A stretch of 64,000 bases of DNA from Bispira polyomma (Eukaryota). Position numbers and translations under genes: made by a program. The first letter of the stretch is position 1. Each line of letters begins with the position of its first letter. Of this stretch, positions 8,217-61,012 are shown in pieces. Below the pieces are notes generated by a model. It did no database searches and had not been told where the DNA came from. It was given only the letters and a program-made list of their open reading frames with translations. The stretch is taken from positions 55,180,001 through 55,244,000 of the forward strand of contig OZ287750.1 in assembly GCA_965649765.1 (NCBI GenBank), in the 5' to 3' direction.

Positions 8217-8800
8217 AATATTCAGCGGATATTAAAGTTGAAAATGGCACGAGAAAGCCTATCTTATTGTGTTTACTGTGCTTTTTTCCACCACAATCCA
8301 TTAGAAAAACGGTTCAGATATTTAAGTTTATATATGGGTACTCTTCTCTTCTACTGTGAATGGCACGTCACAGCAACGTCATTATGGCGTCAATTTTGCA
8401 GCTACCTTACAACTTACACATAAGGAAGTAAAAAATTAGCACTCTTATTTAATTGTACATATATCAGCCGTTTCTCAACGAATATTGGTGGGAAAAAACA
8501 CAGTAATCACATTAAAACAAGCTTTCTTGTGTCATTTTCAAAGTCAACATCCGACAAATTTTGAATATATATCGGATGAAAGACAGCACAACGTTGTCCG
8601 ATGTTGGATTGGACAAACACAAATCGACGGACGTCGGAATGTGTTTAAAGGTGGGGTAGGCTTAGTGATTGGCAAAATATAGACTGGAGAAAAATACATA
8701 TTGTACATCACATTTTCCAGATTTAGGTACTATATAGTACATTTAAAATTAATTCCTAGATTACCATTAGATATCTGTATTACCTGCCTTGGTTTCCTAG

Positions 8801-10455: not shown

Positions 10456-10527
10456 GTAAAAAATTTTAGGTCATATGTACTAGGTAGTATATTTTTTTGC
10501 ATTTTGTGAACGAAAGTGTTTGAACCC

Positions 10528-22354: not shown

Positions 22355-22630
22355 CTATGCCACAATGTTGATCCCTAAACTATGCAACACTATGGGATCA
22401 GGTCTCAACTGACAATTGAGATACTTTGAGAACATGTAGGCCAGGCTGTTAAGGTCCCCCTCGTGACTTAGGCAGGGCAGATAGGCAGCGAGGAATTCCT
22501 CTACGAACTGACAGAGGCACTGTCGTCGGCGTAGGTGGCGCCGCTCTAGCGAGTGAGGCACGCGGCGGTAAATGAGGTTAATGGCGTATGCAGAGCTCAT
22601 CATGACTAGAAGTCTGGAGGCTAAGGGTTT
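22355..22630 (-). CDS. TIR-TMEM268-like gene, terminal exon
   Basis: tattttttag acceptor, phase 0. Encodes KPLASRLLVMMSSAYAINLIYRRVPHSLERRHLRRRQCLCQFVEEF...*, resembling the TMEM268 C-terminus as I recall it (A..LL.....Y...L...LP....RH....CxCQ..E). Confidence 0.85.
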   Translation of the reverse strand, partial: KPLASRLLVMMSSAYAINLIYRRVPHSLERRHLRRRQCLCQFVEEFLAAYLPCLSHEGDLNSLAYMFSKYLNCQLRPDPIVLHSLGINIVA

Positions 22631-23269
22631 CTAAAAAATACAAAGACAATAAATTTATGGAATATCAGATAAAATCTACAAGCCATCTGAAACATATATA
22701 CAAAATTATATGCAGTATATCTCCTAAGTCCACAGGCTAGAGCTTTCTGAAAATATCTACAGTATAGACATCTCATTCAATTTGCAAGCCAGGGTTGCTG
22801 AAAATATATGCATAAACTATGTGTCAAAAAGTCTCAAAAGTAGGGGTTTAATGACAGGTTATAAGCTGTTTTGGAAGGCAATCTTTTTATAATCACCCCA
22901 AGGTCAGGACCATTAGCTTTGAGGCCCTCTGCAACAGTTTGAAGTATTTTAAACTATTTTACAGTATTTTTGTCTGTGGATGAGTGTGATTGGCAGACCT
23001 TTCTTTAAATTGCATTAAAAAAATATGTCCAGGTGAAGTTTCTCTCAATATCATTGACAATTAAAGCATTTTGTTGTCATACTATTTATTGTTGCATAAT
23101 TTCAGTAGAATTTACATATACTAATATTTTGAAAATGTGACACTTTTAAAGTTTCCATTTGAATATCAGTCCTAGGGTGTATGTGATAATATTGTTAATA
23201 GACTTTTCCTGCTTTAATTTCCTCCAACTGCTGCAAATATAATAATTATTCATTTGATATAGCACATTT

Positions 23270-23540
23270 TTAAATTCACTGTTATCAAATGTGCTTTGAC
23301 ATTACTACCCCAGCATGGGTTCTTCCACTTGTCAACCCATTATTCAGTTTCAGCTCCCTCAAGAAGCACACTAGCCATGCTGCCACATACTAACACCCAT
23401 TAAGGGCAACTTTGTGTATAGCACCTTGTCCAAGGGTATAATCTCCAGGCATGCAGCGAGGATCGAACCGGGATCTGAGATCTCTGAACTCTGAGATCAC
23501 TCAAATCCAAAGTCTGACACTCTAACTACTAGGCCACAGA
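23270..23540 (-). mobile_element. Degenerate tRNA-derived SINE
   Basis: On the - strand: GTGGCCTAGTAGTTAGAGTG head, GGTTCGATCC B box, CCCTTGGACAAGG core. Confidence 0.6.
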
Positions 23541-23633
23541 GACACTATTTCCTCCAACTGTTGTACATGATATTACAGAATATGACACTGTTGACAGTGA
23601 GGTAAAACCTGAACTAAACTTAATTACACATAC

Positions 23634-23735
23634 CTCCTGTAGATAGGTGTTGTTCAGTGTATACACATCCACCAGTCTCCCCAACTTTTCCATATCTTCC
23701 TCTGTACAGTGAGTGAGACAAAGCTTGACCTGCTC
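23634..23735 (-). CDS. TIR-TMEM268-like gene, internal exon (EQVKLCLTHCTEEDMEKLGRLVDVYTLNNTYLQE)
   Basis: tatttgtag acceptor, GAG|gtatgt donor, 102 nt, phase 0-0, open. Confidence 0.8.
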
Positions 23736-24643
23736 CTACAAATACACTTACTGTATTTATTGTATGTATATTATTGTATTTATCAAACTCCGCAAGTATA
23801 AAACCGTACATGGGCTTTCAATCCGGTGCAGAAATGTTATTGTACTATATTCAAATTTGTCCTCGGCACATTTATCTACTGTTATCTGGTATTCAGAGTA
23901 CTAAGTCATATTTTCAAGATAGAAACCAGCACCAGCAACTGTCATTCCCCTAACTAAAGCGACAGGTGATGACCACCGTGTCACCGCCCTCAAGGTTTTT
24001 TAGCCTCCCACTGGGGATAGGACTGTTTAGACGGTCGCCCATGGACGAAACCAGCTTGTTCCAAAGGGGAATTAACCACTAGGCCAAAGTGGCAGATATG
24101 ACAGATATTACTCTTATCAAAGTAATATTATACTTGCACGAAAATTGACAGAACTGCTTGTAACAGTAATTTTAAATTATTTTCTGTATAACAACATTAA
24201 ATTTGGGGAATTGGTGAACCGTGTCATCTTGCAAACAATATACTAATATAAGATAATATAAGATATAAACAAATGACTGTTATAAATGTTCAACATTTTC
24301 CTTTGTTATTTTAGAATACACAAACTATATCAGGATTGAGTAGCTTGGGGTTTTTAGATTATGGCACAGGAAAGCCCATATCAAGCTGTTATCAAGAGTT
24401 CTTATATTTATTTATAATAACGTATTAACAAAATGAGAACTAGATTTCACAAGTCTTTTTTTGTATTTTATCCTTATCCACCATGCATGAAGTCATTATT
24501 ATTCCTCTATCTGAATTACCCCATTGTCAGAGGAAACACAACACCAGCGCATATTTACAAAGTCATTCTGCTCCCATATAATGTTGAAGACAAACGTATA
24601 TAAAGAAAGTCTAAATGACAACAGGTTATAATCTTCAACTCAC

Positions 24644-24787
24644 AATGCACTCGTATCTGTTAAAGTAAAGGAAGTAGATATGAAATTGGTCATCACTGGT
24701 TTTTGCTGACGTCACAACAAGTGGCCTGCCCCAGGAGTATAACAATGCATTCATGTAGATACTGCGACTGAACATGCGCATGGAATA
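24644..24787 (-). CDS. TIR-TMEM268-like gene, internal exon (YSMRMFSRS...FHIYFLYFNRYECI)
   Basis: ttgtttacag acceptor, ATT|gtgagt donor, 144 nt, phase 0-0. IYFLYFNRYECI resembles TMEM268 LWFVYFDLENCV (recalled). Confidence 0.85.
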
Positions 24788-25091
24788 CTGTAAACAAGAG
24801 ATGTAAAGTTATACATTTAGATTAGACAATTTAAAAATGTATCATTTTTTTATCAAATTGAAATAATATATCGGCATATATATAGTCATATCAGAAGTTC
24901 ACCAATTTGTAGTTATATTCATGTATATGGATTCATTTTGAAGTTTTGATTAAATGCCGGCTGCCTGTACTGTAAATCAATGGATTTCAGCATGTGTTCT
25001 GCTAACTTTTATGCTGGAGCTGATATTAGAACCAACACATGCAGAGGTAGGAAGTAATTGTGTTACACAAACTTCATCAAGGCCCCTATAT

Positions 25092-25247
25092 AGGTCCTCA
25101 GTGGCCGAGTGGTCAGCAAGTTTGGCATCCAATCACAGGCTGTCACGTCTGTGTGGGTTCGCCTCCCACAAGTGACAAATACTGTGGGCCTGTCCCAATA
25201 TGACCCTGGCTGTTGAACGGGACGTAAAATCCCTAACTTTGACTTTG
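25092..25247 (+). mobile_element. Short tRNA-derived SINE (different family)
   Basis: A box TGGCCGAGTGG, B-box-like GGTTCGCCTCCC, tail GGGACGTAAAA. TSD TCAAGGCCCCTATAT. Confidence 0.82.
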
Positions 25248-25544
25248 TCAAGGCCCCTATATCACGGGTTACTGATGTATGCACATAATCATGTCAGATG
25301 TTGACCATTTTGTAACTGTAGTCATATTAGTTTGCATTTATAATTATACTCAATGCAATATCTTTTCTGAGATTCAAAGGCCTGAGTTGCTTGCATATGC
25401 AGTCAAGCACCGAGGCTTGAGGATGATCATTTATCATTGGCCAAAAGGGGTCATTAGCCTTTCACTGGGATAGGATCAAATAACAGAGCAATGTCATTTA
25501 AGTGGTAATCCAGGCCACTGTATATATCTGCCTATAGCCGGGAG

Positions 25545-25800
25545 TTTAAATTTTAATTTGGATATTTAATGTCCACCCTAGTACCTTTCAGTAGGTTATA
25601 TTGGGACGGGTACTTGGAAACGCTGGAGGAAACACTGCATACAGTTGGTCAAGGTTCTGCAGAGAAACCAGTGGTCCACAGTAAGGAACTACCACCTTTC
25701 CCACATAGGCATCGACGGGATTCGAACTCACGCCGCCCAGAGGTGAGAGACCAGTGATTGTGAAGCGCAATGCTTGCTAACCACTAGGCCACCGCGGCCC
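25545..25800 (-). mobile_element. tRNA-derived SINE family 1
   Basis: Full-length. TSD CTGCCTATA(G/T)CCGGGAG. Confidence 0.9.
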
Positions 25801-26131
25801 CTGCCTATATCCGGGAGACCTATATCTGGGATCAAACTCAGGTCCTCCGCATTTCTAAGCATGTGTTACATACTGGGTCACAGTGGTATATACCGCTTTT
25901 CTATAGGCCCTTCTAAAATTATCGTACTGACATGTCTTAAAGCATGGAATGTGGCATCGAAGTAGGACAGAACATAATACATTCATTTTTGAAGGGTCTA
26001 AAAATTGGTGATCATTGGAGCGACCATATTGAAAAGATCAACTAATCTTTCATCTCATTATATAGTAACTAGTGAATGACATGAAATTCTGACCAAAGAA
26101 CCATCAATTATGACTATCATTTTTGGGTTAC

Positions 26132-26232
26132 CTTGTCTTTGTGAGCTTTGAGCTTTTTCCACCTGAACAAACAGCCTAAAACAATGCATATAGCAGGAAT
26201 GGTGAACACACACAGTCTCACGGGGAGTGTGC
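26132..26232 (-). CDS. TIR-TMEM268-like gene, exon encoding TM helix 2
   Basis: atttctctag acceptor, AAG|gtaacc donor, phase 1-0. Encodes STLPVRLCVFTIPAICIVLGCLFRWKKLKAHKDK: hydrophobic helix followed by a basic stop-transfer segment. Confidence 0.83.
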
Positions 26233-27697
26233 CTAGAGAAATACACACAATAACCACTTCAATAGATGATACTGTTATATATGTATAAGTAACACACCAT
26301 CTGACTGACAGTGTACCTAGAAATAGACAAAATTACCACTTCAATATATTATAGAACTGTGTAGACATACCTAGAAATACATAAAATAACCACTTTGATG
26401 ACAATGATGGCAATGCAATATATTTCAGTGTATTTTTTATCTGTAAAAAAAGGAGTGCATTATAACAGTGAAACTGAAAACAAGAGCAGAGTGGTCTGGC
26501 GACCACGTCATAAAAATCCCACGACGAGTCCCGAAAATAGTGAACCATCAGCAAAAATCAAAGCATTATCATTATGGTCTGCAAAAAAAATAATTAACTA
26601 TTAAACAAATAAAGGGTACTTGCTTTTATTTGGTCGTATTGCATATTGTTCAACTTCATAGATATAAGCAATTGTTTGAAGTCCTTTATAAAATTCATGT
26701 TTTCACCCCCATCAAGTGGTGCTTAAATTACTTTGAAATCCCAAGATTTTCAGCCAATCCCGTCTCGCCTAAGATAAAATTAGGCTGGTCACCATCTTTG
26801 ATCATTTTTTACAACTATTTATACACAGAGATTGATCAATATAGAAATTGATGTGACAGAAAGTTGTTAATAAACTACAATTTCTAAGTGAGGCCGTGGG
26901 ACAATACTAATGTGATTGACAGCTTGACTGGACACGCCCAGAAACTGATAAAAACGCAAATATTGTCTATTCGTTATTAGAATCGATCTGTGAGCACAAG
27001 AGGTTCAAATCTAGATTCGATGCGAATTTTAGACCATAGCTCTCTACCAGTTTCGAGATTTTTCACACTTTCTCGATTCCATCTACCTCACGCTGAAGCA
27101 TACTAACACGTCACTTCTTGTCGGAAGTGAACGCACCCAAAAAAAGAGTTAAAACTAATGAATTCTTAGGAACAATTAGTCCAGCTTACAAAGGATGGTT
27201 TTAATTCATTACATACCCATATTCTTCCCCAGCGGAAAATACTATTTTATTAATGATGTAAATTAAATTTAATATATTATTTAACAGAGTACCACAGCTC
27301 ATACATGTTTTAAATTAGTATTTCTTTCTGTGGAATATAATAAATCATTAGAAATTAAATATTGTTATTATTTGTTTACTTTCACTGTCACAACTTACTG
27401 AGTCTGTCTTAGGTTAACATGGTAATTAACAGATGATAATATTAGACTGTTTACATGTCGTCTAGTACTGTTGATAGGGTAAAACACTATCACTATGATA
27501 ACTTACTTGTTTTATTAGTAGGTTACAACACTATCACTATGATAACTTTCTAGTACTGTTGACCAAAGGAATATGATTCTCCCAAGAACTTGAGCTAAGA
27601 ACGCTCCAAACAAAAGACAAACCTCCTAACTAGTAGGCCACATAAATCACAATGATCAAATAATGATTTATTAGTACTATGTTGTACAAACCAAGAT

Positions 27698-27934
27698 TGA
27701 ATTTGGATATTTAATGTCCACTCTAGTACCTGTTTAGGTTATATTGGGACATGTAGTTGGAAACGCTGGAGGAAACACTGCATACAGTTGATCAAGGTTC
27801 TGCACTGGAACCAGCGGCCCACAGTAGGGAACTACCACCTTTCACACATAGGCATCGACGGGATTCGAACTCATGCCGCCCAGAGGTGAGAGATCAGTGA
27901 TTTTGAAGCGCAATGCTTGCTAACCACTAGGCTT
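27698..27934 (-). mobile_element. tRNA-derived SINE family 1
   Basis: TSD TACAAACCAAGAT. Confidence 0.9.
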
Positions 27935-28539
27935 TACAAACCAAGATACAGTATTGACAACAAAAATGCACTTATTAGAATTTATACTAACCTTATATTA
28001 ACTTGCTACCACAATGACCACAAATAATACAGATACTAATTTGGATGCTGTATATTAAATTACTGGTACTAGTATTGGGCATAACTTATTAGTTAACTAG
28101 TATTCTAACATGACACGGCAGTGTCGACGATTCTAATTGGTTCCCCAGAATGTGTTATATTCTAATAACAAGGTAGGCGATTCCATCTCTTAAACATTGC
28201 GGTAACTCTGTTACTGTAACTCTGTATCACCCTCTGCAGTCAGTTGATGTAACAGCCATATAATTTATTGGATATTGTAACAAATTGGACTTATTTTTAC
28301 AAAATAAGGAATTGGTCATGTTAGAATAGAAATAATGCACTCCAATTGTGGTGTTGTGCTGCATTTTGCAACGAGTAGCGATATTAGGAGCACTAAGGCG
28401 AAGTGTGTTATTTCTGCACTAAGCACAAAAAATCACTTACTAGAACTTACTAATCTCATAATAATTTGCTAGTACTATAACCACAAATAATACAGATACT
28501 AATAGTCCAATACAGATGTCATTTTATAACTTACTGACC

Positions 28540-29990
28540 ACAACAAAATAGTTAGCTAGATACTGACCACAACTCATTAGTTAACTAGTACTGACCACAA
28601 CTCATTAGTTAGCTAGTACTGATCACAACTCATTAGTTAACTAGTACTGATCACAACTCATTAGTTAACTAGTACTGATCACAAGTAAGTAGCTAACTGG
28701 TACTGATCACAACTCATTAGTTAACTAGTACTGATCACAAGAAAGTAGCTAACTGGTACTGATCACAAGTAAGTAGCTAACTGGTACTGATCACAAGTAA
28801 GTAGTTAACTGGTACTGACCACAAATCATTAGTTAACTAGTACTGACCACAACTCATTAGTTACCAAGTACAGACCACAAGTAAGTAGTTAACTAGTACT
28901 GACCATAACAAATTAGTTAACTAGTCCTTTGTACTGACTCTGACTACAACTCATTAGTTAGCTAGTACTGACCACAAGTAAGTAGTTAACTAGTACTGAG
29001 CACAACAAAATTAGTCAGCTAGTATTGACCGCAACTCATTATTTAACTAGTACTTATCACAACAATTAGTTAACTACATACTGATCACAACTCATTAGTT
29101 AACTAGTACTGATCACAACTCATTAGTTAACATGTACTGACCACAACTCATTATTTAACTAGTACTGACCACAACTCATTAGTTAGCTAGTACTGATCAC
29201 AAGTAGGGGCCACGGTGGCCTAGTGGTTAGCAAGCATTGTGCTTCACAATCAGTGGTCTCTCACCTTTGGATGGCGTGAGTTCGACTTCTGTCGATGCCT
29301 ATGTGGGAAAGGTGGTAGTTCCTTACTGTAGTCCGCAGGTTTCAGTGCAGAACCTTGATCAACTGTATGCAGTGTTTCCTCCAGCGTTTCCAACTACCCG
29401 TCCCAATATAACCTAAACAGGTACTAGAGTGGACGTTAAATATCCTAATTCAAACTGATCACAAATGAGTAGTTAACTGGTACTGATCACAAGTAAGTAG
29501 CTAGCTGGTACTGATCACAACTAATTAGTAAACTAGTACTGACCACAACAAATTAGGTAACTAGTACTGATCACAACTCATTAGTTAACTAGTACTGACT
29601 ACAACTCATTAGTTAACTAGTAGTCACCAGAACTAATTAGTTACCTAGTACTGATCACAACTCATTAGTTAATTAGTACTGACTACAACTCATTAGTTAA
29701 CTAGTAGTCACCAGAACTAATTAGTTACCTAGTACTGATCACAACTCATTAGTTAACTAGTACTGACTACAACTCATTAGTTAACTAGTAGTCACCAGAA
29801 CTAATTAGTTACCTAGTACTGATGACAACTCATTAGTTAACTAGTACTGACCACAACTCATTAGTTAACTATACTGACCACAACTCATTAGCTAACTATA
29901 CTGACCACAACTCATTAGTTAACTAGCACTGACTACAACTCATTAGTTAACCAGTAACGACCACAACAAACCAGTACTGACCACAACTAA
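28540..29990. repeat. 28-bp minisatellite (ACTGACCACAACTCATTAGTTAACTAGT)n
   Basis: Roughly 40 units, interrupted by one SINE, abutting the donor of the TM1 exon. Confidence 0.95.
29206..29453 (+). mobile_element. tRNA-derived SINE family 1, inserted into the 28-bp minisatellite
   Basis: Full-length copy interrupting the array, with ACTGATCACAA on both sides. Confidence 0.9.
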
Positions 29991-29998
29991 TCACTTAC

Positions 29999-30170
29999 TA
30001 TTACTATTATCAGGGTAGAGCACTATGACCAGTATGAAGGCTGTACACCAGAAGACAAACACCAGACTGAGGACGAGGTTGGGTATTAAGGTGAAGAGCC
30101 AGGGCAGTCGCCACCCAACATCCTCTCTGCCAACAGCCCGCACGATATCGGTGTACTCCTGATGGGTCAG
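29999..30170 (-). CDS. TIR-TMEM268-like gene, exon encoding TM helix 1
   Basis: gtgttttag acceptor, A|gtaagt donor, phase 0-1. Encodes LTHQEYTDIVRAVGREDVGWRLPWLFTLIPNLVLSLVFVFWCTAFILVIVLYPDNSN. Confidence 0.85.
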
Positions 30171-31717
30171 CTAAAACACAACACTGACTATAGTACGAGT
30201 GTTATTATTGTGGAATAGCTGATGTACGTGGCACAAGCACGTATAGCTTTAAGTTCTTTATATATTCTACGATGTTAACTGTTACATCACTTTCAACAGC
30301 TTATTATATCGTATCATAATGGTCAGATGCAATGTTGGAAGGAACCAGTGCTGACGCCACTCCAGACCACTGACATATGTTTAAAACTTCCTAAATGAAG
30401 GGTTTTTCTAATTCCCCTTAGTGAGAGGCCAGTTAGTGTGAAGCAGGCACTTATGACCACTGGGCCACCTCTATTTTTTTTGTCAACCAATATTTACGTG
30501 TACATAAAGAGAAAGTTAATCGTTTTTGGAGCCCAATCTTTCCATCAACATATTGAGCTCTGGAAGCGATTCAATAACGAAATTTGACGTTATGTTTGCA
30601 AGTTGGCCTTCAAATTCACCAACACAAGCCATCTTTGATATTGGCTGGTGTGATACGTCACGACAAAGTTATACTGTAAGTGTTATTGACGTCAGCTGTT
30701 TCCCCTCAAACCTGTGGCGTTTGGAAATGCAACAGCTATATAATAGTATGCTACTTTATCATCGAAAAAGAAGGAGTACATGTTTTTTTGCTTATTTAAC
30801 ATAGGTAAAGCTAGTAGCACCTCCATTTTGGCAAAATTCAAAGTATTTCATTAAAGCTTAATCTTTCCCAGCCTCAGTATATCTTCTAAATATTTAAATA
30901 ATAAACATTTGCCTTTGGTTAGAACTCGGGTCCTGTACTCCACTAGATGACAGGGTTGTTAAGGTCCAGCATTTATGACGTGTAAATTATCTATTATGTA
31001 TTGTTTTATTCTATGTACGTGTTACTCAATGGGACAACAGTTAAGATATAATAAAGGAAATCTGATGATACAAGTACATGGCTGAAAGCCTGATAATTAA
31101 AATTATCTCACAATTGATGCACTGTCTGGTAATCAAATTGCAAAAACAAAATTCATTTGCTTGCACTTTTTCGACTATAAAAGTGTTTAGTTCTAGGCGC
31201 AGACACTCCAATGACGTCATATAACGAGCTCCAGGCGGGAAAAGTGTGACAAGTCGTCTGCTCATCAAAGAAGACTAGCCCCAGAAAGAGGACAATAGGT
31301 GTTTATGTTTGGTGGGGAACTGTTGACAACTGATAAAGAGGGGGGGGGATGGAATAAATCCCTTGGGACAGGGATGGGGGACGCCTTATCAGTCTCGTTT
31401 TCGTCCAGTGTACTATAGAATGTCTAAATGATTTGATATTTATGATTCGATTTCATGGTAAATCACCCAGGAAATTGAAAATTACAGAGAATAAATAGGC
31501 TGGAGACTTTGTTGGGTAAATGTTGTCAAATATCAAGGTTTTTATTATATAGTTTTCTTTTCTGCAGTTAATAGTCCCTTTATTTTGTCATACACCACAT
31601 ATATTTAAACTATTCTGTGTGTGTTACTTTTGAATATTTTTAAACTATTTGGGCATTCGTTGAGACCTTCAGTTTGAGGAAATCCAAGTAGAAGTGTTGA
31701 GACTTCCCCAAAGAAAA

Positions 31718-31980
31718 GGGGCCGCGGTAGCCTAGTGGTTAGCAAGCATTGCAGTTCACAATCACTGGTCTCTCACCTCTGCGATCGGCTGGCGTGGGTT
31801 CGGCTCCCGGCGATGCCTATGTGGGAAAGGTGGTAGTTCCTTACTGTGGGCCGCTGGTTTCAGTGCAGAACCTTGATCAACTGTAAGCACTGTTTCCTTC
31901 AGTGTTTCCAACTACCCATCCCAATATAACTTAAACAGGTACTAGAGTGGACGTTAAATACCCCAATTTCAAAAACAAAA
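31718..31980 (+). mobile_element. tRNA-derived SINE family 1
   Basis: TSD TTCCCCAAAGAAA. Confidence 0.9.
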
Positions 31981-32408
31981 TTCCCCAAAGAAAGATACAA
32001 AAATCTTCTCTTCTATAACCAGACATAAAGGTAATACATGCTTACATATCAACATTCACACAGAGGGCCTTTTGCATTACATAAAGTGCGAAAGGATAGA
32101 AGGCTTAGTGGGGAAAATTTTCACACTGACAATAATAAATGTATGATTGAGCACAAATATATCAGGGTTTTACGTTTCGATTCTACTATCAATTTCTAAC
32201 ATCTTTATGTTTTGTGATTTAGCAATATGAGTAAACATTGAAATTGTAAGGAATGTGCTGTCTCTGACAGGATGAAGTAATACAGATTTTAGCACAGGGC
32301 TCTATCTGTTTCAACTCTTTCTAATGAATAAAATAATATCAAGCACAACAGCCCAGCAGCTTGGAGGGCTCTACATAATGTTTGTAAGTAAAGAGCAAAT
32401 AGACATAC

Positions 32409-32527
32409 CCCGATGTCATACATCGAAAGAGTCTCGGGAACCTCTTCATGGTCAAATACCAGCCTTGTATTGAAATGACCTTGAACTGAAGTTGAGAGCT
32501 TAACGAGAACTTCACCATTTTGAAAAC
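32409..32527 (-). CDS. TIR-TMEM268-like gene, exon starting the TMEM268-like module
   Basis: ctatctttag acceptor, GGG|gtatgt donor, phase 1-0. GFQNGEVLVKL resembles TMEM268 'NGQVLTVL' (recalled). Confidence 0.83.
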
Positions 32528-33834
32528 CTAAAGATAGAGTATATGATACAAAGGTTAGCCAAATGGTTACAAAATTCAGTTGCCACAAAGTAATCTTTCC
32601 TAAGACTCATATTTTGTTATATAATAATAATGAAGCCTTAAAGGTTATTGCAAACCAGGTCCAGAGAAATATGATCCAATGATAACACAATAAGATCGGG
32701 ACTCGATGGGATCGAGCATTGACACTTTATACAATACTGCCTCTGATTATCTGACATCAAACTGCTAGAAAATAACGAATAAGTGAATACAAGCTAAAAT
32801 TGCAACTTCCATTCCTCCTTGTCATAGGATTGGACAAAAAAGTGGAGAAATTTTTGTTTTAGAGTGTATGCCACATATGTCATCGGGTTTGGATGTGATG
32901 GGACACGTAAATTATATGTTTTTTCCCAGTTGCTATAATTTTGGTTAGATCTTGAATATTCGAACAATACTGCATCGGGCATGGATTGCATGACCCTTTA
33001 AGAGCTTTTATAGTTTTCTGATTTTATCCCTAGATACCACAATGCACCCCTATCAATCTCTCCGTAGGCCACAAAATTCACTTTATGTGTACAACTTTTG
33101 CAATTTCTTTAAATCAAGGGGATTTTGTGACACACATAAGCCTAACTCAAGGCTAGCAATACATAATCAAAGTCTATAATATGAGCAGGGAAAAACAACA
33201 CAATACACAGAAAACTATGCTGAAATCTCCCGTGGAGAACATCTACTGTACACCTTGAATTACAATTGAGGACACACTATCTATAGCACAAGACAGTTAC
33301 AACCAATGCGTCCCTCCATAAGGACATTTACAGTACTTTTAATGGGAAAATCAACCATTTCATTGGTTCAATCAAGATCAAATGACATTGAGTCGCGGTT
33401 TCGACCTGGGCGTATATGTATTTCTTCTATCCAGTGGGTCATTGTTATTTCTACTTCATCTTTGAGAAAGTTGGAGAAAATCTATAGATATTTTGGTCTA
33501 ACTTCTTATGACCTCCATCAAGGATGCTATGTTTCCACTTGTATCTTGTAGTTGGTTGGTATGTTGTTCACCAGAATTACAGATAAGCTCCTGAACTGAT
33601 TAACATGTGAGATTCGGTAGAGTAAAACAAGAACTTTGGCTAAGGCAGAATCTATTAAACTTTGGAGTAAATCCAGGTAGAAGGGTGGATCCAAGATTAT
33701 AAATAATCCTTTTTGGTAATAGCGAAGGTGTCCCCTTTCATTTTTTTTAATACTCGCTTAAAAATTATAGGTCCTTTATTTTTATCAGTAAACGCATCAT
33801 TAAAGTTATTCCATTAAGTCATTAAGTCAATTGG

Positions 33835-34530
33835 ATTTATGTCTTATGGCAGATTTTCTGCCCTTTAATGTAAACTGAACCATGCTTTACTTAAGTGACA
33901 GTTTTTTCTATCTCTCCCCTACCGGTCTATCATAAAAAATTTAATAATACTCCAGGGGCAGTATATATTCATAAAAGGATTTAGTCTTAGGCTTAATATT
34001 TATGTCTTAATTACTTAAAACTGATTACTGTTAGTTTTAGTGTTTTGTGCAATCCTTTGTTACTGTCATTGGGACTAAATCCCAAATCTTAACCTTTTCA
34101 TCCAACATCAAAGGCCACAATTATGAGCTTAACATTAAGTTAAAACAAAGCATTTTGTGAACACGCCCCAGAACCTTGGGAATATGATTTATTTCTTAGT
34201 GGCAGATTTCCTGTGCTTTACTGTTAACTCTACTGGAACAAGCTTCACTTAAATGACAGTTTTCACTCTCGCTTTCCCTATAGGTTCGCCATGAAAAATT
34301 TACCAGAACTTTTGAAATATGATTTATTGCTTACTGTTAGTGACCGCTTTATCCCCCCTCCTCCCATTGCCATGAAATATTTACCAGTACTTTTCGTATA
34401 TGATATATGTCTTCGTGGCAGATTTTTTGTGCTTTACTGTAAACTCTACTGAAACAAGCCTCACTTAAGTGACACCTTTTTCTCTCTCCCCCCAACGGGC
34501 TTACCATGAAAATGTACCAATACTCCAGAG
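33835..34530. repeat. Diverged tandem repeat (three clear units plus a partial), interrupted by a MITE
   Basis: TGGCAGATTT...CTTAA(G/A)TGACA...CATGAAAA recurs at ~33847, 34200 and 34416. Confidence 0.7.
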
Positions 34531-35744
34531 CTGCTAATTAAATGGTCTCTGGTGGATTGGAAACAAGGAAATGTAAAGCAATTCATCTTAGGGCTAATAG
34601 TCTACAATACACTGGTAACATGATGAATAATGGATGGGAGTACTCTAAAATGTGGCTGACTCTAAACTTGTTTTTGTAAGAGTCTAAGCATGACGTAAGT
34701 GCTTGGCAAGGCTACTGGGTACTATATCTAGAGTGAGAGGTTTCAGGTGGTTTTTACATTAAAAGACAGTTTGTACAGAATTTTCACATGCCATCCCACT
34801 GATACTTCTTTGAAATTATAAATGTTAACAATTTCTAACCATTTTATTTTTAAATTCAAAAGGATTTCTATAAAATCTGGTGTAGCAATGGGCACGGGCA
34901 AAAGCCATTCTATTAAATTTGGGGCATAGGCTAAATCCAGGTATTTCTATTTTCAATATAGTGGTACATGCTGTCATATTGACATATTTAAACCAGATTC
35001 TCCTGAAAACCATTTGTAGTTTGTGAATTCAAACCATTTTGCTTTTTCGCCTTTTGTTTTCCTTCAGTAACCTTAAGAGAGGAAAGAGACTTTCTGTTTT
35101 ATATGTAAAAAACACCAAGATGGCCGAGTCTAGACCTTTGTCAATTGCCTGTATCTTATAGAATAGTATCCCAGTTGAGCTTAGATCATTAGAAACACTT
35201 TATGGATTTAGAAGAAAACTTTAGCTTTATCAGTCATGTTTACTCCCTCTAATTCCCACACTGTATATTCCTCAAATCCTTCATTGCAACCTTGCTATGT
35301 TTTTAGGACTTCTTGATTGGTTAATTGATTCTGTTTTAGATTCTGATTAGATGCCTCGCATCAATAAGGTGAGTTAAAATGATGTGTCCAGAAAAGAGAC
35401 ATATCACATCACCATTCGTTACTCGCACGCCCACCCCCACGCCCCAATCCCCCAAAAACTCATTATTAAGCAAGCTATATCATGACAACCCATGTAGTGG
35501 ATTAGATAAATATATCCGCCAATCTTTTTGTATAAATGAGCGGAAGCCATTTTTAGATTAACTGGTACCTTTTTATTAAATCAGCAGAAATCAAACTCAT
35601 GTACTAAAATGAAACTAGCATTGTAAAAGCTATCAACAGCTGAAAAAACCTGTAAAACAAAATATTTGTAAACTTTAAGCTTTTTCACATTTGTACACAG
35701 AATAGACTACTTCATTTACACTGAGAAGAAGCTATGAATAGAAT

Positions 35745-36075
35745 CTACCCAGGGGTATGCTCTTAAAAGTGTGGGTGGATTCAAGAAAGTCACCAGATTC
35801 TACCTCAGGCTGTGGTATACTCTGGGAGGTAGGGGTAGATTCTAGGAAGCAACCAGATTCTACCTCAGGCTAGAGTATACTCTGGGAGGTAGGGGTAGAT
35901 TCTAAGAAGCCACCAGATTATACTTAGAGTATACACTTGGAGGTGCGGGTAGATAATAGGAAGCCACAATATTGTACCTGAAGTATACTCTGGAAGGTGG
36001 GGGTAGCTTCTAAAAAGCCACCATGTTCTACCTAGGATATACTCTGGGAGGTAAGGGTCAGCCTGGGGTAGATTT
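35745..36075. repeat. ~57-60-bp minisatellite
   Basis: TATACTCTGGGAGGTAGGGGTAGATTCTAGGAAGCCACCAGATTCTACC, 5-6 copies. Explains ORF 35865-36185. Confidence 0.85.
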
Positions 36076-37116
36076 ACGTGGTTTCCTGTAATCTGGCCAG
36101 TATAAAATGAAGCGGGGGTGGTAGATAGGACTATATTTTCACATTTTACACCAATGTACGCAACCATGTTATCCAGGTATCTCATAGACAGTTACTCTAT
36201 ACAGAAATGGGATGGGGTATTAACTGATCAGTGGTCTGAACGGACAAGCCACGGGGTACGTTAACACTGAAATTGAATTTAAGGGATTCCGCTGTAATCT
36301 TGGTATTGCACACAAGAGTTGCTTTGAATACAATTTTTGCTTTTGTCCTTTTAGGTAAAGTGAACTCAGCCTTAAGACAAGCAGTAACATGCATAATATG
36401 AAGCTCAACGATTCTAATTACCAAAAACGAAAAGCACCTTTAATTGCTGAGCCTAAAAGCTTGCACAATTTAGAAAGATTGCTTCAGGAAAGAAAAAAAT
36501 CTATTTTTAGAAACCATTTGCTGGCCCAAACCGACAGTAGCCATAAAAAAGGCTCTTTTTTACTTCTTAGGTGGGCTACTTTGGTAACTTTTATCAGAGG
36601 GTTGGGTAGAGGACAGTGATGGATTATCCCTGTCAACAGCACACAGTGGTGTGTGTATTTAACGAGCAAGAAACGCTAAGAGTCTTTTAAATGAGATGAA
36701 AAAAAGGCTTAACTCAAGCCCCGAAAGTCCATTTGTCAAGGCAATGGTGTTCGGACAGATGTGTCTTTGACCAAGTGGTAGATATTGGCCTTTGCAACAG
36801 CCATAAATGCTTTGCATACATAGCCAGCGGATTTTTACTGAATTTAATATTTCTTACAGCAAATCATAGCTTGTTTAGTTTAGATGGTAATTACAGAGTT
36901 ACATAATGTCTACATGGGAATTTATAACAGTCTATGGTCAGGCTATATAGTTTTAGGACCTAATAAATACCACATCTGGATGACCTATGAAATGCTTTTC
37001 AATAATGTTTATGCAATATAAATATTCCTATTTAACAATCATATATCACAAGAAGCAACATTTTTTTAAATCTGCACCTTGAAGTGGCATGCTAAACTAG
37101 GGAATATTAACCTTAC

Positions 37117-37176
37117 CTGATGTGGGCGTGGTCAAAGATTTCAGAGTGTGCAGGGACTCGCTGATTGACAGGCCAT
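37117..37176 (-). CDS. TIR-TMEM268-like gene, Ser/Thr-rich linker exon (DGLSISESLHTLKSLTTPTS)
   Basis: ttttctcaccacag acceptor, CAG|gtaagg donor, 60 nt, phase 1-1. Confidence 0.78.
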
Positions 37177-38150
37177 CTGTGGTGAGAAAAGTATATCATA
37201 TAAGCCGGTAATGTATTCATGGTTATATATCACTGTGTTTAAGAAATTTTAATTCATTTGAGTTCTACATAACTTTCAACATATTCAGTCATATTATGAT
37301 TGCCACGTGCACATTTATTAGTAGAGGAACCCAGTACTATTTGCACTGTAAACTGCCGACCAACAACAAGTACCTGGCACTCTTTCCAGTGGGAGTTAAT
37401 AGGCGGATTCAGGTCAGTCAGGCAGAGTCAGGTTCGGGGACGGTCAGGCAAATTATTTTCTGGGGCTGAACCGCACATAAATCTGACAACCAAACTTTAA
37501 AATTTAAGTTTACCTAATGAACAGATTATTGCAAAATGTAAATCCTGGACTACTACAGATAGTTTACTAAATTTATAAGACAGATTAAAAAAAATTTAAT
37601 TTAAAATATTCCTCGCTGTTTATAACCTTTTGTCCATCCGTTTACACATATTGGTGTTGTTTTTCAAAAAATATATTGCCGGTATGAAACCGGCAACCTT
37701 TGCGATCACCAGGCCAACTACCTCAACTGGGAGTCCAGCCTTCTAACCACCACTAGGCCACACTAGACTCAATCTTTTACTTAGATCTGCTCCCAGATGT
37801 AATGATATTGTTGTCCAAAACGTTGTTATCATCTATGCATTATCTCATAAAAAGAAGTTTACTGGTGGACCAAGTTAGTCAGTCAAGATTTGTACATTGT
37901 AAATGACCAGCCTTCACCAAGTCTACTGCGAACCTCCGCACAAACATGCTAGGGACTGAGGTGGAAAGATAGAGCATTACCTGTACAACGCCAAATGCTT
38001 GATTTTAATTTGACATTGGTTTAACATATTACACAAAACATACATAATCACATCAAGTTATAATATACACAGCTGTTCAAAACTGCACAATGCTATTCAA
38101 CAGTCAATACCTGTTTTTATAGTTGTGCATGTATAATACAGTAAGCATAC

Positions 38151-38756
38151 CTAACTCCAGGTGCTGTAGTAAATTTTCCCAGAATTCTTCATCCATCCCA
38201 GCAGGCACATTCGTTACAGGACTCAAGCAACGCAAACTCTCGGGAAGATCACACGTCCGTAGTATCACAGGAACCAGTCGCTGCCGTCGCTGACTTAGCG
38301 AGGTCACGTGGGATATTGTATCCTCGTATTCACTCCAAGAATCCTGGAGAAACTCGGGACTTAGCACCAATATGACCCGCAAGCTGAGCATAACTGAGCA
38401 AAGGATATTCTGTATGGATGTTTGTTTGTCGTTAAAATCTCGGTCACCATAGCAACAGCGGTAGTTATATGGTGGAGCTTCAAGCACCTGCACCACATGC
38501 TCCACCCATGATCTGTCGTCATGGTGATATCCAAAGTACATGTGGTATCGATGTTTTGTATCCAGCGGACCGGCGCTATAACTGGACAGCGTGGAGATAG
38601 TTGTGCATTCCGATGGGCTGCGCAGATTGGTCAGGGCTAAGCCCCGCCCATAGAAGGCGGAGCCTGGGCATGTGTCACAACCTTGAAGGCGTAGATTTAT
38701 GTCATCTGAGTGGGTGATACTGCCAAGCACCTCATGATTGACAAGGACGCTTGTGT
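38151..38756 (-). CDS. TIR-TMEM268-like gene, TIR-domain exon (first constant exon)
   Basis: ttatttttag acceptor, G|gtatgc donor, 606 nt, phase 1-1. TIR motifs YHMYFGYHHDDRSWV, CYGDRDF, VILVLSPEFLQDSWSEYE, LVPVIL...LP..L, FW..L. Confidence 0.92.
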
Positions 38757-41700
38757 CTAAAAATAAACAAAACAGCATTTTTATATGGGAAAGTAATTTT
38801 GTCATATATAGATATGTACAATGTAAGTAATATATTAAGTTGATTAACATAATGACAAAGTTTGTATTAACATCAGTTCTAAATTGTATGTTTAGCAACA
38901 TAAGTAACAGTAATGTAATAATATAGCATGATATACCATAAATCAATGTTTTAAAAGCTCTTATAATGGCATTTTTATTATGTTAAATTACACCTGATTT
39001 TGAAGGGCAACTGGTCAATTGTATTGTATTGGAGTGTATATGTTTGATGTGCTTTTTTGATGCAAATCATCATTGAAAGCACTACTTACTGGATCAATCA
39101 TGTGTCCTACATAGCCTGGGTTGTCATCAGTAGGCAATGGGTGTATTAACATATTTTCTGAAAGGTTATCCCACCAATGAACCTAGCAGCATTAGCCGGT
39201 GTGAAACAGGCAACCTTTCTGATCACCAGACCAACTACATCAACCGGGAGTCCAACTTTCTCACCACAACTATGCAACAGTAGACTCAATCTTATACTTA
39301 GATCTGCTCCCAAATGTAATGAATTATTATGACCCATGCCACTGCCAAATTTCACGGCAATCGCCTTAGTAGTTTCTATAATTTTACAAATGTAATGTCT
39401 TGTGATCCTGGTGATAATAGAAACATATAAAGACAATGACACGCCATAATAACAATATTGTCATCTTAAAGGGTTGTCGCCCATGGAGCCGAGGCGTTTA
39501 CTGCAAAGATATACCAAAAGGAATAGAAGCACCATCAAGGAGACAGTTGGGAGAACATTTTGCAATTACACAACATTTAATCCGCCTTGGTGGGGGAATT
39601 TAACAGGAGACAGCATCTGTTTAGAGTAATATACACATACACATTTTACAAAAATACAGCATTTAGGAAATATGCAATCTCCAATTTAGCAGTATAATTT
39701 CTACCATCTCATCGTCTTGTTGCCAAGGTAACTCTTTCGAATACATCACTTTGTTGCACACCTGTCACCACTTAGTACAAACACACACACACGCCTGCTC
39801 TAAATGATTCCACTTTATCCTAAATGACTCTTCACACAATAACTATCACTTGCAGCAGGCAAAGCTAGCCTTTCTAAGTCGGTTTCGTTATTTCCTAATA
39901 AAGATTACACTTACATAATTAATAAATATACCACAAAGTATTACATATTTAATTCAACAATCTAAATATAACACACTGGAGTACAAGACCCAGATCTTTC
40001 TATTTCCAACTTTTGTAAGTTTATTCACTTGTGTAATTGTAGACATTGACATTATTAATGATTCCAAAATCCCTCCACAAAACCATTGTGGATTGATCAT
40101 TTTGATACAGTGCTCCTAAGTTATGGAAAAGTTTACAACTGACACCAGGATGATTGAAGAACTTCTAAGTTTTAAATGTGCAATTAAAACAGTTTTGTTC
40201 AATGAAGCTTACAAATGGGTAATCTAATCTATTGTAATGTTTTAATGTCGCTTTCAGTTACTGGGTCTTATATCATGCTGTAGAGTTTACTGTTGGAGAA
40301 AAAACAACAGTTCAGGGTAATTGGTCAAGATTTCTGAACTGTAAACCATCAGATTCCAACCAACCACCTGCCAAGCCAGAATGAGTTTTTAATCTAAATA
40401 TTCTGTTGTAGAGACTTCATTCGAATACTCTGTTGTTAAGAGTGCATTTTAATACCCCACTTAAATGTTCTGTAATGACCCTATTCATAGTATTAAATAT
40501 CCCTTTGAGACAGTAGAACCTAATAAATTAGTACAACCTCTATTATCCGAAAGAAACATTTTCATTTTTCACTTTATCCGAACATGTTGGGAGAGCAAGT
40601 GTTTGTCTGGACATCTGAAGGTTTGTGACGTAGGCATTTAAATACAACGGAAACATGTTAGCAGTGGATTTTTAAAATTAGAGCAGGTTTTACATCACTT
40701 TTAACAGCTTAGATCATATCGCAAAGGTCAGATTTATCAGTGGAGGAAACCGGTGTTTTTCAACACTGTAAACCACAGGCCCATAACAATTTGCCCAGCA
40801 AAGTTGCCCACATGAAAGAAAGGACGGGATTCAAACCAACATTGGTCCCTATGGAAGCAGTAGAGAGCAAAAGTGTTGATATTCAGATAATAGTGTTATT
40901 CTAAGTTGCTATCGTGTTATTTGCTCTGTCTATACAAACCACATTTGATAACCGGTGTATTTTGTACAGATTTTAGTCTTTAACCTAAAAACAACATCTG
41001 CCAGTGGGGCCCAGATGCCAACAAATTTACCTCAGAATGCGGAGTTCGATCCCAACTCTAGATTTTCTAGTACAGGTAGGACGACCATTTAAAATGTTGG
41101 TCCTATGTGGCTTTGGACATAATGACAGACTAAAGAGCCTAAAGAGACGTTGATAAAAGATCATGGTCAAACTAATCTTTGATATAATCTAATGTGTTCG
41201 TGTAATAATTGTTATAGGCCCTTGTTGGTTGTGTTTGTACAGTCATAAAAAGGGTAAATTATAGATCTACATCCAAGAAAAAACAAACAAAGATGTACCT
41301 TGTTGAGTATAAATATTATTCTTTCAAAACTATAATCTATTTGGTGTTTCATTTTATTTCTGCTGTAAAGGTTAAGAGACTATCACTTATATTCACAGAT
41401 ACAGCATTTTGGGAAAACATTGTACCTTAATAGAAAAAGTCGTCTGCTTGAAAGAGAATATTGGTAATTATGACGGCAAAATGGGTTTTTCTGTTTTCTT
41501 CCACAGGAAGAGGATTTGTGTGGAGGCTATTGATTAACGGATGTGCATTGTATTCTGATTGGTCAATTCTGCCCCTAAAGCCCCCCTTCACTTCAAAGGA
41601 CTTTCTGATGTAATTACAATGTGAAAAATTGGTCCCTGGAAGGAAAAGAATGGATTAATAAAGTTATAAGATGACACAAAAGTCAAAGAGAGAAAGAGAA

Positions 41701-44856: not shown

Positions 44857-44926
44857 CTTGTCTGGTGAATCCACTGTATCCATATTGCTTAGTACCCTTC
44901 CTCCAGGAACTAATTACAGATCCCAT
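44857..44926 (-). CDS. Alternative start exon A (MGSVISSWRKGTKQYGYSGFTRQ) of the TIR-TMEM268-like gene
   Basis: aaaATGG start, CAAG|gtaagg donor, 70 nt = phase 1, matching the TIR exon acceptor. Full CDS would be 1650 nt = 549 aa + stop. Confidence 0.75.
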
Positions 44927-46205
44927 TTTAGCCGGGGTTTTTTTTATATTTAAGAGCTGGTGTAATCACAATTTGAGATTATCCAGAACATGCTTTTGAA
45001 GTTGTTATGATTTTGACTATCTGTATCAAATGTAATATGCCAATTAGACTTTCGATAAATATATCTAGCACTTTAAATAAAATTTCAGTGGACAGTTCTT
45101 ATCCACTTTATCATCAACACAGTAATGATGTGTCCTCCAGCTAGGTAAAAGCTCCCAGACCCTCAGCTCACACAATATCCCCATCACTCTTTCCTGTCCC
45201 CAACTACTAATGGTCTAAGCACATAAAAAATATCTACACAGAAAACACATACACCAAACAACATCTTGCTGCAGGCAATTGTAAGATCTTTGCAACAAAA
45301 ACAATGATGATTTTTTGCCACTTCAATCGGTTTCGCTGTGAGTAAGAACCCCTACTATGACTCCAGCTAGAAGCAGTCCTGGCTTTGGGTGAGCATTTAA
45401 TGACAGTCACAACAGTAATCTTTAATGAAGACAAACTATTACTACCAGTGGAACAGTACACATCAGGGAAACCGATGACATTTCTTTATAACTCTACACA
45501 TAAATCACGTTTGGAAATTCACAAAGTTTTTTTTTCTGTTTATGAACATTTTGCTGTTTTACTTTGTAATGCTTTCTTCACAATTAATCTTTTGGAGTTT
45601 TGTTTTTTTTGTGAAGAATCTTCGTGAGCAGAACAATAAGATTTTATAACTGTTTTTTATTACTCCTATGAATTGTTTCATATTTGTTGATGTTTAGTAA
45701 TCTGTTGTCATATATTCCAAAAAACAACAACAGTGTAGTTTTATTTTAATCTACATTTCTTTGTATGTCATTTGATATATATATATATAAATCAATCCTT
45801 ATTATCACAAAAACCTTTTAGCACTACCCCCCACTATTATACTGATCAACTCTTAAGCCTTTTATATTCCATATGATCTATGCCAGCCTTTTATATCATC
45901 TCCCGTGGCCTAGGTGTGTGTGATAAGTGGTGACAGGTGTGAACCAAAGTGATGAATTCGAAAGAGTTACCTTGGAAACCAGACCGTTTATTGTAGCAAT
46001 TCAACTGCTAAATTGGTGATTGCAGCTTTCCCTATGCTGTATATTTTGTGAAATGTATATGTGCATATCAATCTAAACATATCTTGTCACCTGTTCGTCA
46101 CCAGAATTACAAGACAGTATATTTATAAAATTATAGAAACTTTTGGCAGTGGCATAAAAATTCATTAAATTTGGTAGGAGATCCAATTCAAAAATTGGAG
46201 ATTAC

Positions 46206-46400
46206 TGTGGCCTAGTGTTAATTAGAAGGTTGGATTCCCGGTTGGGGAGTTGGTCTGGTGACCGGAAGGCCCTCATTTTGACTCCTGCTAACATTGCAAG
46301 GTTCTTTGGTGGGATAACATCCTTGGGCAAGATATGAACACATTATTGCCTTCTGATGAGGACCCGGGCTGTGTTATAAGGCACATGATTGATTTGGGTT
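46206..46400 (+). mobile_element. Older SINE family 2 (other copies ~37680-37770 -, ~39100-39285 -, ~52420-52590 -, ~57655-57860 +, ~60575-60730 -)
   Basis: GTGGCCTAGTG head, GGAGTTGGTCTGGTGA and GGATAACATCCTTGGGCAAG blocks recur in diverged form. Confidence 0.7.
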
Positions 46401-46770
46401 TTGCTCTTTTGAAAGATACGAGAGCATCATTAAAGCACGATTAAAAGGTATAATATAATATAATATAGATGTGTCCCTGCCTTTCTATAGTTTACCACAG
46501 TAAACATCCTTTATGAGTAATATCCTTTATTTATAACAGGCCTGTGTATTTATAACATTATTTACAGCCCTGTTCACTACTACCTATTTTTCTAATTTTA
46601 TACATGTCTATTGTGTGTATTGAATCAATATATTGAACCGGTTTAACATAGCTCCGGTTTAATGCTTTCTGGTTTAATGTTTGTATATTTCTAACTTATT
46701 AGTATTGGTATAGTATTACAGGTATATATGTAACATTTCAATCTAAAGCATTGCTACCAATACCCTAACA

Positions 46771-46962
46771 GGGCCGCAGTGGCCTAGTGGTTAGCAAGCA
46801 TTGCGCTTCACAATCACTGGTGTCTCACGTCTGGGCAGCTTGAGTTTGAATTCAGTCGATGCCTATGTGGGAATCCAACTACCCATCCCAATATAACCTA
46901 AACAGGTACTAGAGTGGACGTTAAATAACCAAATTAAAATAAAAATTAAAAAAAACAAAAAA
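46771..46962 (+). mobile_element. tRNA-derived SINE family 1, internally deleted
   Basis: Head and tail are joined, with the central core missing. TSD ACCAATACCCTAAC. Confidence 0.88.

Positions 46963-48526: not shown

Positions 48527-48527
<1 letters not shown>

Positions 48528-48606
<79 letters not shown>
48528..48606. repeat. (TA)n microsatellite
   Basis: Pure TA run of ~79 bp. Confidence 0.98.
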
Positions 48607-48608
<2 letters not shown>

Positions 48609-48759
48609 TGCTAATATCAGCTATTGACATGTTACACTGACATTTATAGTAGTTTCAAGTAAATAAAGCTAGAACCCCAACAATATATATTTAAGTACAT
48701 GCATGACAAGTAGAGAAAGAGGGTGAAGTGTATGCATTATGCCTAATTGGATCATTTAC

Positions 48760-48829
48760 CTTGGCTGGAACATCCATTATATTAATATTGCTTGTCACAC
48801 CTCTTCCGAGAACTAATTACAGATCCCAT
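48760..48829 (-). pseudogene. Alternative start exon B, disabled (MGSVISSRKRCDKQY*YNGCSSQ)
   Basis: Colinear 70-nt paralogue of exon A with CAAG|gtaaat donor. In-frame TAA at codon 16 (48782-48784). Confidence 0.7.
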
Positions 48830-51478: not shown

Positions 51479-51733
51479 GGGACCGCAGTGGCCTAGTGGT
51501 TAGCAAGCATTGCGCTTCACAATCACTGGTCTCTCATCCTCTGAGTTTGAATCCCGTCGATGCCTATGTGGGAAAGGTGGTAGTTCCTTACTGTGGGTCG
51601 CTGGTTTCAGTGCAGAACCTTGACCGACTGTATGCAGTGTTTCCTCCAGCATTTCCAACTACCCGTCCCAATGTAACCTACTAAAGGGTATTAGAGTGGA
51701 CGTTAAATACCCAAATTCAAATCAAATTTCAAA
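51479..51733 (+). mobile_element. tRNA-derived SINE family 1 (present only in duplication copy 1)
   Basis: TSD-like TTATTGTTGGTATT / TTATCGTCGGTATT. Empty site at ~60027-60040. Confidence 0.9.
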
Positions 51734-52799: not shown

Positions 52800-52869
52800 C
52801 TTGCCTGGAGAATCCACTATATCCATATTGCTTGTCACACCTCCTCCTGGAACTAATTCCAGTTCCCAT
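52800..52869 (-). CDS. Alternative start exon C (MGTGISSRRRCDKQYGYSGFSRQ)
   Basis: agcATGG start with an upstream in-frame stop, consensus CAAG|gtaagt donor, 70 nt, phase 1. 59/70 nt identical to exon A. Confidence 0.72.
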
Positions 52870-58800: not shown

Positions 58801-58823
58801 GATATATTCACAAAGTTGAAGAT

Positions 58824-60942: not shown

Positions 60943-61012
60943 CTTGCCTGGAAAATCCACTATATTCATATTGCTTGTTACACCTCCTCCTGGAACTAAT
61001 TCCAGTTCCCAT
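60943..61012 (-). CDS. Alternative start exon D (MGTGISSRRRCNKQYEYSGFSRQ)
   Basis: 67/70 nt identical to exon C, CAAG|gtaagt donor, phase 1. Confidence 0.72.

Follow-up and report, generated by a model that had tools for sequence, protein, structure and literature searches.

What does a protein do that joins a TIR domain to a membrane hairpin of two adjacent helices? The question is raised by a gene of Bispira polyomma at positions 22,355 to 38,756 of a 64,000-nt window (GCA_965649765.1, contig OZ287750.1, 55,180,001 to 55,244,000), the whole stretch of DNA analysed here, to which all positions below refer. The membrane module of this gene can be placed in the DUF4481/TMEM268 family by profile matches, and its core is predicted to have the fold of Erf4 and GOLGA7, accessory subunits of zDHHC palmitoyl-transferases. 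We tentatively read the protein as a zDHHC-bound cofactor for TIR-bearing clients, a reading that we regard as possible rather than probable.

The gene lies on the minus strand and is a spliced animal gene of eight exons with a stop-free joined frame of 525 residues. The sequence-only reading had proposed this chain, and every exon, GT-AG intron and phase that it named was found (Table 1). A tblastn search with the Lineus longissimus protein XP_064626799, a single RefSeq chain holding both the TIR domain and the membrane module, recovered seven of the eight exons in order (E = 6e-36 to 2e-5); the match of exon 2 was seen only by global alignment. Identity to this protein ranges from 35 to 62% over all eight exons. 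When the last exon was the sole query, a 540-residue L. longissimus RefSeq protein with a TIR domain was returned (2 hits among 27 candidates). The four Lineus isoforms differ in their first exon only, and the junction falls at the same place as that of the window's TIR exon. The Tubulanus protein (LOC141899026) has the same architecture as the window gene, and single-exon fragments of other genomes have the same ends as the last two exons of the window.

Introns of up to 4.6 kb separate the parts, as might be expected if the TIR exon and the TMEM268-like exons were two separate genes or had been joined by an artefact of the gene model. This explanation is extremely improbable given the single-chain RefSeq proteins with TIR and module in Lineus (four isoforms), Tubulanus, molluscs, echinoderms and vertebrates, and given the conserved linker exon. 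In addition, a 579-residue family member is encoded on a Logan contig whose 1,892 nt leave no space for introns and which would therefore be a spliced transcript. Taken from these comparisons, the encoding of the TIR domain and the membrane module by one gene is supported. Three DNA-like contigs are identical to all eight exons; they come from a single study and may be the source sample. In a contig search no RNA dataset matched positions 29900-38800 of the window, a result that is silent on expression.

The splice acceptor of the second transmembrane exon lies in a repeat of three copies (26232-26380), and use of the second copy would add 28 in-frame hydrophobic residues. The corresponding fifth-exon acceptor at 26316, which yields a 553-residue version, was rejected: it lies within the splice-site repeat and the added residues have no counterpart in the orthologue. 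The intron after the first transmembrane exon contains a 28-bp tandem array of about 50 copies (28532-29967), interrupted by a dispersed high-copy repeat of about 250 bp that recurs many times in the window.

The TIR exon exceeds the curated Pfam cut-offs for both TIR_2 (41.8 bits, cut-off 28) and TIR (29.9 bits, cut-off 21.3). A Foldseek search with a predicted model of the Lineus protein (predicted local distance difference test score 80) ranked TLR1 (E = 3.7e-8), TLR10, TLR2 and TLR6 first, as for a TIR fold, with SARM1 far below these toll-like receptors (TLRs). In a wide structure search with the same model, VIA tied oyster TIR-STING with Hydra TRR-2. The window's BB loop reads RDFNDK and lacks Pro-Gly. 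Residues were counted in 50 aligned rows, 4 of which lacked the region and were dropped, and some of which are near-duplicates, so that the following counts are not independent: the BB-loop Gly occurs in 0 of the 11 rows from the window's subfamily versus 34 of 35 other family rows (Pro-Gly in 20/35), and the Glu at the catalytic position of helix alpha-C in 5 of 11, the window included, versus 33 of 35. The alpha-C Cys is absent from the window TIR and its 10 closest scored relatives. By this alignment the window's clade is a BB-loop-deficient branch of the TIR family. The BB-loop proline is required for signalling by TLR2, TLR4, TIRAP and TRAM, and mutants are dominant negative (PMC3594740).

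The sequence-only reading had suggested a membrane-embedded TIR adaptor or effector. The TIR domain and its embedding in the membrane stand, but "adaptor or effector" fits the window's subfamily poorly because the BB-loop Gly is lost throughout it and the catalytic-position Glu is kept in fewer than half of its rows. The same sparse retention of the Glu weighs against an enzymatic effector, a NAD+ hydrolase like SARM1 that would be activated by an oligomerising membrane module. SARM1's low rank in the structure search points the same way, and TLR TIR domains have the same Glu and are not known to be NADases. We consider an enzymatic role improbable.

Two strong hydropathy segments (residues ~306-340 and ~343-368 of 549) enclose a loop of some 10 residues, and a basic stretch comes after them; a third, weaker peak falls inside the TIR core. 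The TIR domain is N-terminal to this helix pair, a different layout from that of a TLR, with its leucine-rich repeat (LRR) ectodomain, one transmembrane helix and TIR domain. No LRR was found in Pfam scans of seven of the eight exons (exon 2 being too short for a scan) or in the Lineus orthologue, and no Ig ectodomain precedes the transmembrane helices in the window model or the orthologue. The TIR end and the C-terminal part are both predicted to be cytosolic. Because there is no ectodomain and both ends would lie in the cytosol, the protein should be unable to sense an outside ligand in the manner of a TLR. The sequence-only reading agrees with the analysis on the TIR domain, the Ser/Thr-rich linker (9 Ser/Thr in 22 residues, its exon matched in Lineus), the two transmembrane helices, and the absence of an ectodomain that makes the protein neither a TLR nor an IL-1R.

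Membership of the module in a known family was assessed with the Pfam profile PF14800 (DUF4481). The last exon alone scores 18.6 bits (E = 0.0012, cut-off 25) and the Lineus orthologue 23.5 bits, just below the cut-off. Among 30 chosen relatives, 17 match at E <=0.01 and 9 reach the cut-off, including Saccostrea (26.5 bits), a member of the window's clade; an Asterias protein spans profile positions 8-292 of 293. Against an independent profile of PF14800-positive relatives, built solely from ten rows of echinoderms, amphioxus and Capitella, the window module scores 48.3 bits in a collinear match over positions 4-192 and 248-288; the best shuffled sequence scores 6.9 (172 of 200 scored) and the reversed sequence 1.5. 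By the second of these profiles the window module belongs to the DUF4481/TMEM268 family. The match and the two adjacent helices bear out the claim of a complete TMEM268-like module, and the proposed likeness of its motifs to vertebrate TMEM268 was assessed through PF14800 and the profile of PF14800-positive relatives. Three protein searches aimed at vertebrate TMEM268 yielded nothing beyond nemertean, echinoderm and unnamed proteins. The nearest Atlas clusters for the module are DUF4481/TMEM268 (0.83-0.85, a lead only), and an Atlas search without PF14800 found unnamed clusters alone (0.85). Four residues, Cys/His/Cys/Cys, are invariant in the family and possibly form a site for zinc.

Separately, unnamed clusters of 171-230 residues, found in Mucoromycota, ciliates and diatoms, reach scores of 0.78-0.85 with the module; they are a lead only to possible distant, TIR-less, non-animal relatives.

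The first 190 residues of the module are predicted to resemble GCP16/GOLGA7 and Erf4 in fold and element order. The predicted core is a three-stranded sheet with cytosolic helices around the membrane helix pair, and the transmembrane hairpin would occupy the place of GCP16's two membrane-inserting helices. Identity to GCP16 and Erf4 is 11-12%, below the reach of the sequence methods by which Erf4 was sought, namely Pfam scans, which did not list it, and phmmer against the PDB, which returned none. A Foldseek search of the PDB with the module gave no match at E 0.001, and GCP16 was not among the 550 top chains; the wide structure search with the full-length Lineus model was taken up by matches of TIR and Rossmann-like type and hardly probed the module. 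As GCP16 and Erf4 have no transmembrane helix and the module has two, we describe it as resembling the Erf4/GOLGA7 family and do not class it there. Given the predicted fold, the module may be more than an anchor.

GCP16 and Erf4 are accessory partners required by their zDHHC enzymes. By analogy, the window protein might act in the membrane as a cofactor, keeping TIR-bearing receptors or adaptors at a zDHHC palmitoyl-transferase. The module would dock on the enzyme and the TIR domain would bring in TIR-bearing clients by TIR-TIR capture, and together these contacts would set the acylation, trafficking and lifetime of the client and would not relay a signal. In the BB-loop-deficient branch the effect would be regulatory, a dampening or sorting of Toll-type signalling. 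TLR2, TLR5, TLR10 and MyD88 are palmitoylated (PMC8453015). TMEM268 is found in endoplasmic reticulum as well as plasma membrane and prevents the degradation of ITGB4 and CD11b, and its knock-out worsens inflammation induced by lipopolysaccharide (LPS) (PMC6748091; PMC11169502).

Several points weigh against the zDHHC-cofactor reading and keep it tentative. The fold match was made on a predicted model of a relative from an echinoderm cluster that is only 18% identical to the Lineus orthologue, and its root-mean-square deviation is 4.7 A; the tool itself warns that helix-rich models can reach such Z scores through a common arrangement. Erf4 appears only at rank 45, level with matches to helical hairpins. 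GCP16 contacts zDHHC9 through R16 and Y18, and by sequence alignment no Arg or Tyr column is conserved at >=60% in the loop after the module's first strand. A common fold demonstrates no function, and a TIR domain that lacks the BB-loop motif might fail to bind any TIR client. The paper on TMEM268 and CD11b reports a direct interaction and nowhere speaks of palmitoylation (0 occurrences; PMC11169502). A broader proposal is doubtful: DUF4481/TMEM268 would be a transmembrane branch, so far unrecognised, of the Erf4/GOLGA7 zDHHC accessory subunits, its TIR-fused form a built-in substrate adaptor delivering TLRs or MyD88 to a palmitoyl-transferase, and human TMEM268 would stabilise integrins in the same way.

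Direct binding of TMEM268 to ITGB4 and CD11b, together with the stronger LPS inflammation of knock-out mice (PMC6748091; PMC11169502), would also suit a membrane-tethered decoy or chaperone that has no enzyme partner. Here the module would bind clients such as integrins directly, and the degenerate TIR domain would cap TLR or MyD88 assemblies and dampen signalling, in keeping with the loss of the BB-loop Gly in all 11 subfamily rows and with the dominant-negative action of BB-loop mutants (PMC3594740). A decoy leaves the Erf4/GOLGA7-like core and the four invariant Cys/His residues unexplained, however, and nearly all other family members keep the Gly; we judge it unlikely. Another possibility, very improbable in our view, is a membrane adaptor for a ubiquitin ligase that would remove TIR-bearing receptors as part of a pair like CHIC2 and STUB1. 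CHIC2 carries an Erf4-type domain. Such a domain is not mentioned in bioRxiv 2023.07.17.549407 (0 occurrences). CHIC2 is a palmitoylated membrane adaptor that binds CHIP/STUB1 (bioRxiv 2023.07.17.549407; PMC9574515). Yet CHIC2 binds CHIP through a C-terminal, EEVD-like Asp motif (bioRxiv 2023.07.17.549407), and neither the window protein nor the Lineus protein has a terminal Asp; TMEM268, moreover, stabilises its clients and does not remove them (PMC6748091; PMC11169502).

The TIR+DUF4481 fusion was found in nemerteans, molluscs, an annelid, echinoderms, hemichordates, amphioxus, reedfish, lungfish and a frog, and a phmmer search of 1.84 billion representatives gave at least 150 proteins. A module profile built from 15 full-length rows matched 57 of 158 sequences (157 proteins and the window model), 46 of the 57 also carrying a TIR domain; the count takes in the four Lineus isoforms and three marginal matches. 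Fifteen of 20 representatives were named, from oyster, mussel, abalone, whelk, argonaut, Capitella, Saccoglossus, Ptychodera, Asterias, amphioxus, reedfish, lungfish and tailed frog. All seven matches of a search with the Asterias module carry precomputed annotations of TIR and PF14800, and several are named "TMEM268-like". Besides the Lineus and Tubulanus proteins, members include Saccostrea XP_062590966, Asterias XP_033642929 ("TMEM268-like"), Capitella ELU08653, Protopterus XP_043914868 and Ascaphus XP_075422882.

The window protein is 45.6% identical to the Lineus protein (529 columns), 46.6% to that of Tubulanus and 31% to two mollusc proteins. In a quick tree of 44 rows it groups with the two nemerteans and one Logan protein (support 98 in the Shimodaira-Hasegawa-like approximate likelihood-ratio test, SH-aLRT), inside a 12-row clade with mollusc proteins (SH-aLRT 99). 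TIR-less DUF4481 clusters of 271-336 residues occur in arthropods and chordates. Judged by this distribution, the fusion is an old bilaterian family and no peculiarity of the window genome. It is already visible as a Pfam architecture in public proteins. No functional description of any TIR+DUF4481 protein was found. Among the literature matches listed there was no TIR-DUF4481 protein and no Erf4 fold for TMEM268, although the ecTIR-DC list of Gerdol et al. 2017 may include the family. Two Branchiostoma lanceolatum proteins labelled "TLR2" (P0038 and P0158) are TIR+DUF4481 proteins without LRRs, and such labels may inflate TLR counts. A further unnamed protein of 1,279 residues (P0018) has several TIR domains and a C-terminal SAVED domain.

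The eight-exon model opens in phase 1, and four copies of a 70-nt ATG exon with a phase-1 donor lie upstream, spaced roughly 4-8 kb apart (44857-61012, minus strand). With any of the three open copies (44926, 52869, 61012) in front of the eight exons, the protein is exactly 549 residues long, as claimed in the sequence-only reading. Copies 44926 and 52869 are 85% alike with diverged flanks, and a tandem duplication of about 8.2 kb (~49.6-55.6 kb versus 58.1-64 kb, 70-87% alike) carries two of the copies. Changed codons outnumber silent codons in each of three pairwise comparisons, with no coding constraint evident. Lineus also has four alternative first exons, unrelated in sequence to the window copies. 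An exon resembling the Lineus X2 start was sought in the window as first exon and not found; a candidate exon at 52526-52261 was rejected, having no Pfam hit and overlapping a dispersed repeat.

The candidate first exons begin with Met-Gly; the product of the copy at 44857..44926 also has Ser at position 6, which we take to be an N-myristoylation-like start. Such a start would suit a sorting adaptor like TRAM or TIRAP, in which the module and a possible N-myristoyl group only position an active TIR domain that nucleates MyD88-type signalling. TRAM is myristoylated (PMC3594740), the TIR fold lies nearest those of TLR1/10/2/6, and the BB-loop Gly and often Pro-Gly are kept outside the window's subfamily, so that this role may apply to other subfamilies. 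For the window protein it is distinctly unlikely: the four Lineus isoforms and the Tubulanus protein all lack a Met-Gly start, and the window TIR and its 10 closest scored relatives have neither the BB-loop Gly nor the alpha-C Cys.

Table 1. Exons, motifs and candidate first exons of the TIR+DUF4481 gene, with identity to the Lineus orthologue.
Feature	Position	Strand	Phase	Identity	Remarks
TIR exon	38151..38756	-	1-1	38%	Low-complexity N-part, then TIR ~38547-38158
BB loop without Pro-Gly	38442-38425	-			In TIR exon
alpha-C Trp..Glu	38343-38323	-			In TIR exon
Ser/Thr-rich linker exon	37117..37176	-	1-1	35%	60 nt
Start of DUF4481 module	32409..32527	-	1-0	40%	NGEVL motif, first beta strand and hairpin
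First transmembrane exon	29999..30170	-	0-1	44%	Cytosolic helix and first transmembrane helix
Second transmembrane exon	26132..26232	-	1-0	59%	Second transmembrane helix, juxtamembrane Cys, basic stretch
Sheet-closing exon	24644..24787	-	0-0	52%	Long helix and two beta strands closing predicted Erf4/GOLGA7-like sheet; invariant Cys near exon end
Helical region after core	23634..23735	-	0-0	47%	
Last exon	22355..22630	-	0-stop	62%	Helix, invariant His and Cys-x-Cys (22540-22505), subfamily-specific C-terminal helices, stop
Candidate first coding exon	44857..44926	-			Nearest intact copy; ATG, 23 codons + 1 nt, phase-1 donor
Degenerate first-exon copy	48760..48829	-			In-frame stop, weaker donor
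Candidate first-exon copy	52800..52869	-			Intact; within ~8.2-kb tandem duplication
Candidate first-exon copy	60943..61012	-			Intact; in second duplication unit

Elsewhere in the window, open reading frames (ORFs) at 3144-4223 and 8760-10469 on the plus strand encode LRR and Roc-COR domains (Pfam LRR_4, Roc, COR-A) and are probably two exons of one ROCO gene. Between them lies an ORF of 617 residues (6210-8063) that by eye resembles a LINE reverse transcriptase. Rfam gave no match in the window.

Knock-out phenotypes of TMEM268 are described in models of sepsis and gastric cancer, and a molecular mechanism is lacking. With an Erf4/GOLGA7 fold predicted, the function of TMEM268 and of the TIR family can be tested directly, beginning with a zDHHC partner. 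The TIR-fused family would add to innate immunity a class of membrane-embedded TIR proteins that extends from nemerteans to amphibians, and could explain how TIR proteins are selected for palmitoylation. Should the zDHHC link fail, what remains is an old TIR family that seems not to have been studied, one of whose branches, in spiralians, is BB-loop-deficient.

Compared with known systems, the window protein shares the TIR fold with TLR1/2/6/10 and with the adaptors MyD88, TRAM and TIRAP, but it has no LRR, Ig or death domain, its TIR domain precedes a membrane hairpin and its BB loop lacks Pro-Gly. The module is similar in predicted fold and element order to GCP16/GOLGA7 and Erf4, the subunits of zDHHC9 and Erf2; these have two membrane-inserting helices in place of two long hydrophobic ones, and neither a TIR domain nor a Cys/His C-terminal part. 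TMEM268 (C9orf91) has two adjacent transmembrane helices within one DUF4481 domain (PMC6748091), as in the window module, to which the diverged subfamily of the window adds a TIR domain at the N terminus and further helices at the C terminus. The uncharacterised TIR+DUF4481 proteins have the same architecture, and those of other clades keep the BB-loop Gly that the window's clade lost. Like the window family, the ecTIR-DC families, as cited in PMC6321704, are widespread TIR proteins of invertebrates, uncharacterised and proposed to be adaptors or regulators; they are stated there to be absent from vertebrates, whereas the window family has members in reedfish, lungfish and frog.

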